Sequence record: PV390658.1
Direction: 5' to 3' (one strand)
DNA: 64,000 nucleotides
Source of the DNA: Escherichia phage vB_EcoM_P54
The stretch's first letter is position 1, and each line of letters begins with the position of its first letter. The notes under the pieces were generated by a model. That model had not been told where the DNA came from. It saw nothing but the letters and a program-made list of their open reading frames with translations, and did not search any database. Shown in pieces: positions 30,122-40,666 of the stretch. The position numbers and the translations under genes were made by a program.

Positions 30122-38137
<8,016 letters not shown>

Positions 38138-38138
<1 letters not shown>

Positions 38139-38377
38139 TACATTTTTCCTGCTCTTCTAAGTTCGTTGTAAGCAATTTCCTCTTTATACGACCTCTGAAT
38201 TTCAAGAAATTGTCTCAATGATAATAAATCAGAGAATGTCATAGCAAAGAGTTGGTCAAGTGTTTCTTTACACCCTTCCATACCATAAATAGCAAGCACA
38301 AATTTCATCTCGTCTGCTTCTTCATAGGTTGCCTCTACAGCAGCATCAGTCAGTGGTGTCTGTAGAGTGTTACCCAT
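38138..38377 (-). CDS. tail assembly chaperone, -1 frameshift extension ORF
   Basis: 79 aa ORF in the -1 frame relative to the upstream chaperone; reachable via the T_TTT_TTC slippery site at 38416-38422. Confidence 0.5.
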
Positions 38378-38379
38378 GT

Positions 38380-38778
38380 TTACTGAGAAGTTAGGCTTTT
38401 GAAAATGCTTGCTTCGAAAAAACTTCCGAAATTTGCCTCCAGCGCAAATGCTAAGTAATCAATAAATTCACCATAGTTTGCTTGGAAGTATGTATCAATA
38501 TTAAGTGGGAAGTCATCAACAGTTGCCCCTTGAAATAATAGGGTAGCCATTTCTTCAAGGTTAATTTCTTCAATTCTGTCAAAACAAGCTTCAACAAGTT
38601 CTTTAAATGGAACCATTGGAGCTTCTTTCTTATCTTTATCAGTCAGACTTGATAGCATCTGTGCAAAGGTTGGAACAACAATCTTACCCAACTTCATAGA
38701 CATCTTAATACCATCTCTTGCCCCAAGCAGAACGATATTTACTTTCTTACCATTAATTACTCTAGATTCTGTTTTCAT
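38380..38778 (-). CDS. tail assembly chaperone
   Basis: 132 aa; between tail tube and tape measure; contains in-frame slippery heptamer near its 3' end. Confidence 0.55.
   Translation of the reverse strand: MKTESRVINGKKVNIVLLGARDGIKMSMKLGKIVVPTFAQMLSSLTDKDKKEAPMVPFKELVEACFDRIEEINLEEMATLLFQGATVDDFPLNIDTYFQANYGEFIDYLAFALEANFGSFFEASIFKSLTSQ
38416..38422 (-). promoter_or_regulatory. -1 programmed ribosomal frameshift slippery heptamer U_UUU_UUC
   Basis: Minus strand reads ...GGA AGT TTT TTC GAA...; TTT and TTC are zero-frame codons of the chaperone ORF; the -1 frame is open from here into ORF 38377..38138. Confidence 0.55.
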
Positions 38779-38794
38779 TGTGATTCCTTAATAC

Positions 38795-38840
38795 TTTTAA
38801 AAGAAACAAAAAAGGGGAAGACCTTTTAAAGTCTCCCCCT
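38795..38840 (-). terminator. rho-independent terminator after the tail tube gene
   Basis: GGGGGAGAC / GTCTTCCCC imperfect hairpin followed by a T7 run on the minus strand. Confidence 0.5.
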
Positions 38841-38851
38841 TATAGGATTTA

Positions 38852-39298
38852 TTAAACACTTGACGCTGGAATTGTTGAAGTGTAGTCTAGCTTCTCACAA
38901 CCAAAAATCCAAGTTTTAGAGTTCTGGTCACGACCAAGTTCAATCTGTGGTAATTCCTGCAACCAAGCATTAATACCAGTTGCCAGAACAGAGCCTGATG
39001 GGTCGTAGATTACGAAGTTAGAAGAGATATCTTCTTCAAGTTCCATATTGTCTTGTTTAGCTTGAATTGCAGAAAGCATCTGGTTAGAGAGAGAAGTCTG
39101 CATTAGCTCAATCTCAATAGTACCTGTCTTGTCTGCATTTCTTGTCAGAGCAACTTGACCACCTGCACCAACAACTGGTGTGATAAGTGGTGATGTTCTC
39201 TGTAGACGTAAGAATGAATCTGGAGCAAAGCCTTCAATAGCAATGCCGTTCCAGCTACACACAACGTCTTTAGGGGAATATTGCTGATACATAGCCAT
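38852..39298 (-). CDS. tail tube protein
   Basis: 148 aa; immediately downstream of the sheath gene; terminator hairpin follows. Confidence 0.55.
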   Translation of the reverse strand: MAMYQQYSPKDVVCSWNGIAIEGFAPDSFLRLQRTSPLITPVVGAGGQVALTRNADKTGTIEIELMQTSLSNQMLSAIQAKQDNMELEEDISSNFVIYDPSGSVLATGINAWLQELPQIELGRDQNSKTWIFGCEKLDYTSTIPASSV

Positions 39299-39313
39299 TC
39301 CAATTTACCTCTA

Positions 39314-40666
39314 TTATTCGTAAGCCACTGTACCTTTCAAGTCAACATCCAAGATAGCCCCTGCTAAGATACCTGCGAAGGTAACATCTTTCAGGATACG
39401 AGCTTTCTTGTCTGCCAAAGCAACTTGAGAGGCTTTAGGAACATTAACTGTGTAAGATGACAGGAAGTTTCTGTTGACTGCTCTTTGTAGAGAGGTTTCA
39501 ATGACTTGACGAATACGGGTAATACCAGTATCATCATAAGTAATCTTACCACCCTTCTGGTTAATTAGCAAGTCTCTCAGAGAAGTTTTCAGGTCTGATT
39601 CCAACCAGTCAACGCCACGGATGATATCAATCCATTCCCCACCAGAAGTAATCCCTCTACGAACCACTGGAACACCACCATCAAGGTCAATAAAGTTACA
39701 GTGACGTGCATCTAAAGCTGACTTCTGAATACTTGTCAGAGGTCTCTTATTAGCTGGCTGTAGAGAAGCAGCTACACCAGTCAACTGAGCATTACCCCAA
39801 GCAATTGACCCTGCATCGTATGGAGCACCATAAGCAATGTATGCCATCTCTGGATAGTCTTCTGCTGCTGTGTGATGCCACAAGCAAACTGTGCGAGTAT
39901 ACATACTCTTAGCAAGCTGTGCTGGAACATCGTTTGCACTGTTTAATTCTGTACCTTGTAGTGCTGATACATCAGAGTTAGCAGTGAAGAAGATTTTCTT
40001 ACGAGCCTGAATCTCAGAAGCCATTGCTAGGACAAACTGTTGAGTTCTGTCTTCTGCTGCAATGAAATACCAGTCAGTAGAATAAGCTTCAATGGCTGCC
40101 AGAGCAGTTGATGCTGTATCGGCAGTTGTGCTTGCAATAGATACAGTCTGTGCTGTAGTTGTTACTTTCACAAAGTCATTATCACCAGCTTTGGTAATAA
40201 TCATTGTGGCAGAACCATTGCTACCAGTTACGTTCACAGAAACCTTATCTTTGATTGTTGGGTCAGCTTCAATCTGTGTTTTAAACTGTTGCAACACTAC
40301 TTCAGCAGTGTCTGAGTCTTGCGCTGTATACTGGTATGGTTGAGAAATTCCACCGCCAGCAGCTACAGTAATCGAGTAGTCTGTACTTTCGGTAACGGCA
40401 TCAGGAATTGATACAGTGTACTGCATAGCACGTCTACCAATATAAAGCTGAGTTACTTTAGGAGTCTGACTCCAAAGTTGTTTAGCAGCCTTATATGCAG
40501 CAGTATTCTCATCGAAATCTTCAGCAACTTCAGTTAAGGAAGTGTAGCCACGTACTCTTTCTTCAAAGTTATCTGTTGAAGCTAAGAATAGTGGTAAACC
40601 AAAACCTTCTCTTGTAGTTCCTGCGGTGTTCAATGTAATATCTACATTAACAATTGGATTCCACAT
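39314..40666 (-). CDS. contractile tail sheath protein
   Basis: 450 aa; size and position upstream of tube. Confidence 0.6.
   Translation of the reverse strand: MWNPIVNVDITLNTAGTTREGFGLPLFLASTDNFEERVRGYTSLTEVAEDFDENTAAYKAAKQLWSQTPKVTQLYIGRRAMQYTVSIPDAVTESTDYSITVAAGGGISQPYQYTAQDSDTAEVVLQQFKTQIEADPTIKDKVSVNVTGSNGSATMIITKAGDNDFVKVTTTAQTVSIASTTADTASTALAAIEAYSTDWYFIAAEDRTQQFVLAMASEIQARKKIFFTANSDVSALQGTELNSANDVPAQLAKSMYTRTVCLWHHTAAEDYPEMAYIAYGAPYDAGSIAWGNAQLTGVAASLQPANKRPLTSIQKSALDARHCNFIDLDGGVPVVRRGITSGGEWIDIIRGVDWLESDLKTSLRDLLINQKGGKITYDDTGITRIRQVIETSLQRAVNRNFLSSYTVNVPKASQVALADKKARILKDVTFAGILAGAILDVDLKGTVAYE

Follow-up and report, generated by a model that had tools for sequence, protein, structure and literature searches.

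A probable programmed -1 ribosomal frameshift in the tail assembly chaperone genes of Escherichia phage vB_EcoM_P54, as already on record for close relatives

Between the tail tube gene and the tape-measure gene of Escherichia phage vB_EcoM_P54 lies a pair of overlapping open reading frames, ORF1 and ORF2, and the locus raises the question of whether these are expressed as two independent genes or as two products of a single start codon. The window, meaning the whole stretch of 64,000 nucleotides analysed (sequence record PV390658.1), belongs to Felixounavirus (Felix O1-like myovirus) and shares 99% DNA identity with several sequenced phages. Across 37900-39400 the identity to Shigella phage Z31 and Enterobacteria phage ECP2307 is 99.3%, and a DNA search with this interval matches the locus in 258 phage records. 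The evidence set out below argues strongly for a programmed -1 ribosomal frameshift of the lambda G/GT and P2 E/E+E' type, which is considered very probable. The frameshift is not new to the group; it is already known, having been annotated and published for close relatives.

The relevant genes are all located on the minus strand, in the order sheath, tube, terminator, chaperone, -1 ORF and tape measure (Table 1), with the ATG of the tape-measure gene overlapping the TAA of the -1 ORF (TAATG). In related loci the tail tube family carries the name Phage_Tube_PhiTE. Judged by its family matches, ORF1 is a bona fide tail assembly chaperone, belonging to Pfam PF21822, Phage_TAC_15 (E=1.2e-19; 71.5 bits against a cutoff of 22), and matching the tail assembly chaperone family phrog_1613 (E=7.9e-49) as well as phrog_3840. 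ORF2, in turn, is matched by phrog_4963 from end to end. A PDB sequence search with the predicted 213-aa fusion of the two returned no relative. The terminator-like hairpin between the tube and chaperone genes is strong and kept in relatives, and the record of phage Meda annotates it as a terminator. With it in place, the chaperone and tape-measure genes would be transcribed less than the sheath and tube genes.

Table 1. Features of the tail chaperone locus, listed from 5' to 3' along the minus strand (window coordinates).
Feature	Position	Strand	Details
Tail sheath gene, 450 aa	39314-40666	minus	phrog_205 tail sheath, E=2.7e-123; Pfam PF11863
Tail tube gene, 148 aa, directly upstream of the chaperone gene	38852-39298	minus	Pfam PF11681; phrog_280
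Intrinsic-terminator-like hairpin and T-run, tube/chaperone intergenic	38812-38841	minus	13-pair stem, then TTTTGTTT
ORF1, G-like tail assembly chaperone, 132 aa, 0-frame product	38380-38778	minus	Pfam and PHROG matches (see text)
Shine-Dalgarno-like GGAGG	38436-38440	minus	13 nt between GGAGG and the heptamer T_TTT_TTC
Second in-frame heptamer A_AAT_TTC, in the overlap	38428-38434	minus	12 nt upstream of T_TTT_TTC, within the open -1 window
Slippery heptamer T_TTT_TTC, proposed -1 shift site	38416-38422	minus	0-frame register of ORF1
Predicted -1 extension (T part), 92 codons	38138-38416	minus	13-codon linker RSKHFQKPNFSVN followed by the 79-aa ORF2, ending in TAA
ORF2, 79 aa, -1 frame	38138-38377	minus	phrog_4963 'tail assembly chaperone', residues 1-79 of 79, E=2.8e-55
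Tape measure protein gene, 742 aa	35910-38138	minus	Pfam TMP_3, E=2.3e-17; phrog_4036, 1532 bits

The proposed shift site is the in-frame heptamer T_TTT_TTC, for which the preliminary description had given the right coordinates, 38416-38422, while leaving the strand unstated; the strand is minus, and the plus strand reads GAAAAAA. In the register agT_TTT_TTC the heptamer takes in the third base of codon 119 and the whole of codons 120 and 121 (codons 119-121 of 132 encode Ser-Phe-Phe), and the coding strand around it runs ...GCG CTG GAG GCA AAT TTC GGA AGT TTT TTC GAA GCA AGC ATT TTC AAA AGC CTA ACT TCT CAG TAA AC ATG GGT.... Eleven sense codons lie between the heptamer and the ORF1 stop TAA (38382-38380), and the earlier figure of about 13 codons holds when the count begins at the first T of the heptamer. 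As had been claimed, the -1 frame is open through the 79-aa ORF: it is open from 38458 onwards, takes in both the heptamer and the ATG at 38377, and closes only with the TAA at 38140-38138. The predicted transframe product is 213 aa in length (...EANFGSFF-RSKHFQKPNFSVN-MGNTLQ..., with base 38416 read twice), and its junction would read ...ANFGSFFR / SKHFQKPNFSVNMGNTLQ.... The ATG of ORF2 is situated 2 nt past the ORF1 stop and is not preceded by a Shine-Dalgarno sequence.

The overlap contains a second in-frame heptamer, A_AAT_TTC, at which a shift would yield a fusion with four residues different. It was rejected as a conserved signal, with Meda, ekra, CL1, Moogle and most other relatives having AAC at this position, and on the sequences compared it is specific to the strain of the window.

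Close relatives already carry the fusion in their annotation. In Salmonella phage Meda (Felixounavirus), which has 98.3% DNA identity to the window over 38138-38778, the two frames are deposited as a joined CDS under the name 'Tape measure chaperone frameshift product', and Citrobacter phage Moogle (Mooglevirus) has a joined CDS too. Transframe proteins modelled with the shift at T_TTT_TTC are exact matches to the deposited Meda AXY86324.1 and Moogle YP_009145710.1, and Michonne YP_009177317.1 (Mooglevirus) falls into the same cluster as these frameshift products. Use of a -1 frameshift is stated in the genome announcements of Moogle and Michonne (PMC4319497, PMC4591319). The Meda, Moogle and Michonne products involve the same genes, heptamer and junction as the window, with no substantive difference; the 213-aa product of the window is three residues from that of Meda and has no database entry of its own. 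A homologue search with the fusion protein returned only G proteins of 124-136 aa, the deposited fusions being recovered by exact look-up, and most other records of the genus (about 250) present two separate ORFs or 'hypothetical proteins'. For the Felix O1-like phages, the open-access literature (to which subscription journals could add more) contains predictions in genome announcements only, with no paper reporting a detected fusion protein or a measured efficiency.

Some peculiarities of the deposited records were observed alongside. The product names given to ORF1 and ORF2 vary ('head closure protein', 'Hc1 head closure protein / Tc1 tail completion protein', 'tape-measure protein', 'hypothetical protein') and conflict with the Pfam and PHROG assignments to tail assembly chaperones. 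Escherichia phage CL1 (OK040806.1; L007:956-962) has seven T at the site, which places G and T in one frame as a single 213-codon 'tape measure chaperone'. The T7 version occurs in 0 contigs of IMG/VR, against 23 with T6, and the seven T of CL1 probably stem from a sequencing error in the homopolymer or else constitute a singleton variant. In addition, a near-identical chaperone is filed under Staphylococcus hyicus (WP_252560994.1) and phage records labelled Campylobacter and Staphylococcus match the locus, labels which probably reflect assembly contamination or mislabelling.

The weight of the argument is carried by comparison across ten lineages, namely the window, Moogle (Mooglevirus), mistaenkt (Suspvirus), phiEa21-4 (Kolesnikvirus), Hafnia phage SarahDanielle, Yersinia phage P778, Pectobacterium phage Wc4-1 and three metagenomic contigs. 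Felixounavirus is represented in this set by the window, and its close relative Meda has the same pattern. Protein identity to the window drops to about 41-52% across the lineages. The 11-nt block AG-TTTTTTC-GA is invariant, and with the heptamer unchanged and in frame in every one of the ten lineages the observation goes beyond chance. The heptamer is located 9-17 codons ahead of the G stop, and the -1 extension, of 92-95 codons in each of the ten, ends at or just before the start of the tape-measure gene. In the Erwinia phages, sensitive blastn found that the sole DNA still matching the window is 38393-38433, an interval centred on the site. The conserved G/GT-type arrangement that the preliminary description had recognised is thus borne out, with the gene order and the chaperone families in place in the window and the slip site and -1 ORF kept in all relatives examined.

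The constraint on the site is evident at the level of individual codons. A codon alignment of the transframe products contains 31 degenerate columns in which the amino acid is invariant, and the codon is also invariant in only 6 of these; four of the six are the consecutive AGT, TTT, TTC and CGA of the slip site. The other five invariant Phe columns mix TTT and TTC in every case. On this comparison the heptamer is under selection at the nucleotide level. The -1 frame is likewise under selection at the protein level, by the same comparison, across the junction and upstream of any possible start of ORF2: Arg122 and Pro129 of the linker are invariant in the -1 frame, Pro129 being encoded by three different codons, while the overlapping 0-frame residues vary. 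Furthermore, six of the ten lineages retain the -1 ORF at full length yet offer no ATG up to 36 codons from the slip site; gene callers and annotators leave a gap of ~240 nt in these ATG-less genomes.

A natural control is provided by Buttiauxella noackiae, of which a 1.88-Mb contig (JPRU01000001.1; L011:3001-3986) carries a chromosomal tail module with a 126-aa chaperone harbouring the ...NFGSFF... motif. The G-S-F-F of this chaperone is spelled GGC TCA TTC TTC, which is non-slippery, and the chaperone gene is not followed by a -1 ORF. Instead, a stop/start overlap (TAATG) joins it to a gene for a separate protein of 201 aa. The N-terminus of this protein aligns with the chaperone G (31% identity, E=7e-10), and its residues 64-194 align with residues 81-208 of the window fusion, across the junction (30% identity, E=5e-13). 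The colinearity of the 201-aa protein with the predicted fusion shows that a protein of the fused architecture really exists. It looks as if the frameshift has been naturally replaced by gene duplication in Buttiauxella, and among the loci compared the sequences place the slippery codons only where the two-frame arrangement is kept. No sheath-sized gene was found in the 3 kb upstream of the Buttiauxella module, which may therefore represent a non-contractile prophage tail or tailocin.

Frameshift signals of the dnaX/IS911 type may resemble that of the window in combining a slippery heptamer with a Shine-Dalgarno-like sequence 6-17 nt upstream. Signals of the dnaX/IS911/IS3 group also have a hairpin or pseudoknot 5-9 nt after the heptamer, whereas none was found in the window. 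The 56 nt after the heptamer fold with -3.4 kcal/mol (z = +0.91) and the 123 nt after it with z = -1.09, neither of which is significant; folding of the 60 nt after the heptamer in the ten lineages gave z-scores from -1.65 to +1.74, again with nothing significant, and RNAalifold found 0 pairs downstream of the heptamer in the 10 sequences. An Rfam search of 37900-39000 at a permissive E-value returned two sub-threshold chance hits only. The downstream stimulatory structure envisaged in the preliminary description accordingly did not materialise, as neither the window nor the ten lineages yielded a significant or conserved hairpin or pseudoknot. A hairpin predicted at 38323-38378 on the minus strand, CAUGGGU...(CUCUACAG...CUGUAGAG)...ACCUAUG, holds the ORF2 AUG in its stem; it is not significant (z = -1.09 for the 123-nt stretch), and nothing in it is conserved by RNAalifold.

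The upstream element, GGAGG, lies within the spacing given by Sharma et al., by which a Shine-Dalgarno-like sequence stands 6-17 nt upstream of the motif. GGAGG or GGAG is present in six of the ten lineages and missing in four, a further point of difference from the dnaX/IS911-type signals, and the Glu codon inside the element varies between GAG and GAA (6:4). The sequence may be an upstream stimulator, with no strong constraint upon it, and would be at most a lineage-specific enhancer. The heptamer seems to constitute the whole signal. Reporter assays in E. coli ranked U_UU.C as the second most shift-prone A-site tetramer, after A_AA.G, and all-pyrimidine heptamers were favoured for shifting; heptamers lacking a stimulator shifted just 2-10 fold over background (Sharma et al., 2014, PMC4066793).

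The closest likeness among experimentally studied systems is with phage P2, also a myovirus, in which E/E+E' arises by a -1 shift on six T near the end of a small chaperone gene that is flanked by the tube and tape-measure genes (Christie et al., 2002, as cited in PMC3091744). P2, too, has no downstream hairpin. The seventh base is G in P2 (TTTTTTG), placing UUG (Leu) in the A site, but C in the window, with UUC (Phe) in the A site; the P2 products are smaller (91 and 142 aa, against 132 and 213 aa); and the P2 shift was shown experimentally, whereas that of the window is predicted from sequence. The G/GT system of lambda, as outlined in PMC5009743, matches the window in its gene order and in carrying the T domain in the -1 frame, and the expression predicted for the window in making two products from one start. 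That outline also describes G and GT as made in a fixed ratio and the chaperones as acting on the tape-measure protein (Levin et al., 1993; Xu, Hendrix and Duda, 2004, 2013, 2014, summarised in PMC5009743). Lambda is a siphovirus, unlike the myovirus of the window, and no sequence similarity between lambda G/GT and the window was detectable with the tools used. The heptamer of lambda is G_GGA_AAG.

Other explanations of the locus were weighed against the ribosomal frameshift. In one of them, the locus of Felixounavirus genomes, that of the window included, could give three products, namely G, a frameshifted GT and a free 79-aa T made by termination-reinitiation at ATG 38377, or, alternatively, the shift could come about partly by RNA polymerase slippage on T6, or GGAGG could be the sole stimulator. 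This set of variants is considered unlikely. Translation of ORF2 from ATG 38377 is a possible additional route in Felixounavirus; however, most other Ounavirinae lineages lack an ATG 2 nt past the G stop, which rules out own-start translation of ORF2 as the general mechanism.

Transcriptional slippage as the whole explanation would have RNA polymerase stutter on T6 and add an extra U to some transcripts, from which ordinary translation would produce the same GT fusion; slippage on homopolymer runs is treated in a review (PMC5009743). The site is indeed such a run, the conservation of which fits either mechanism equally, and one extra T does join the frames, as the T7 and single 213-codon ORF of phage CL1 (OK040806) illustrate. 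Against this, the run comprises just six T and is short. Efficient slippage by bacterial RNA polymerase normally requires about 7-9 or more consecutive A or T. The seventh base, moreover, is an invariant C, whereas selection for slippage should favour TTT and so lengthen the run, and all lineages retain the exact X_XXY_YYZ register. Shifting is ribosomal in the proven analogues, lambda G/GT and P2 E/E+E' (TTTTTTG). Slippage by the polymerase is, on balance, very improbable as the source of the fusion.

Should the two ORFs instead be independent genes, ORF2 would be translated only from ATG 38377 by re-initiation, with no fusion, and the heptamer would be a by-product of a conserved Ser-Phe-Phe. 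The position of the ATG 2 nt past the ORF1 TAA in the window and in other Felixounavirus genomes agrees with this, as does the annotation of two separate genes in most GenBank records. A used start of ORF2 had been named in the preliminary description as an argument against the frameshift; in the comparison the ATG of the window proves to lack a Shine-Dalgarno sequence and not to be conserved, being absent in 6 of the 10 lineages in spite of a full-length -1 ORF. The protein of the -1 frame is, in addition, conserved ahead of the ATG. A Ser-Phe-Phe by-product would not account for codons that are frozen in the heptamer while the same amino acids elsewhere have mixed codons, nor for Buttiauxella, in which GSFF is encoded in non-slippery form exactly where a full-length GT-like gene stands separate. 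Independent expression without a fusion is therefore hardly to be credited.

As for chance, the background frequency of such motifs can be stated: a count over the 16,460 in-frame positions of the window's 61 long ORFs gave 60 X_XXY_YYZ heptamers in frame (0.36% per codon), and the chance of the efficient AAR/UUY class occurring in the 26-codon overlap is ~3%. A functionless co-occurrence of heptamer and open -1 frame is effectively refuted by the comparative data and has next to no probability left: some in-frame heptamer would fall in the overlap with a chance of ~9%, but the heptamer and its synonymous sites are unchanged across lineages at about 41-52% protein identity, and T_TTT_TTC occurs in frame only this once among the long ORFs. 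Beyond the two heptamers of the chaperone gene, one other has a -1 frame that passes the stop of its gene, namely A_AAG_GGG at 35128. This heptamer (35122-35128, minus strand) stands two codons ahead of the stop of a Dit-like gene (35113-35910) that is followed, in the -1 frame, by the gene at 34772-35113. The heptamer probably serves as the Shine-Dalgarno sequence, or ribosome-binding site, of this following gene at an overlapping junction and is no recoding site.

Under the programmed ribosomal frameshift, most ribosomes starting at ATG 38778 would stop at 38380 and release the 132-aa G-like chaperone. In a minority, the two tRNA-Phe on UUU (P site) and UUC (A site) of agU_UUU_UUC would slip by one base and re-pair with UUU_UUU, after which these ribosomes would read on in the -1 frame, CGA AGC AAG..., through the 79-codon ORF. 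The outcome would be a 213-aa GT-like protein having its first 121 residues in common with G. By analogy with lambda, many copies of G and few of GT would coat the tape-measure protein encoded directly downstream, the tube protein would be brought in by the T domain, allowing the tail to polymerise to its measured length, and neither G nor GT would remain in the virion. We infer the ribosomal nature of the shift, its efficiency and the assembly roles of both proteins.

The value of the finding is one of annotation: a single start codon with two products, a gene model that is transferable to the window with confidence. The comparative result offers a clear textbook case of selection acting upon a recoding signal and is no discovery. 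Felix O1-like phages serve in Salmonella typing and in biocontrol, and because of these uses correct models of their tail genes have some applied use.
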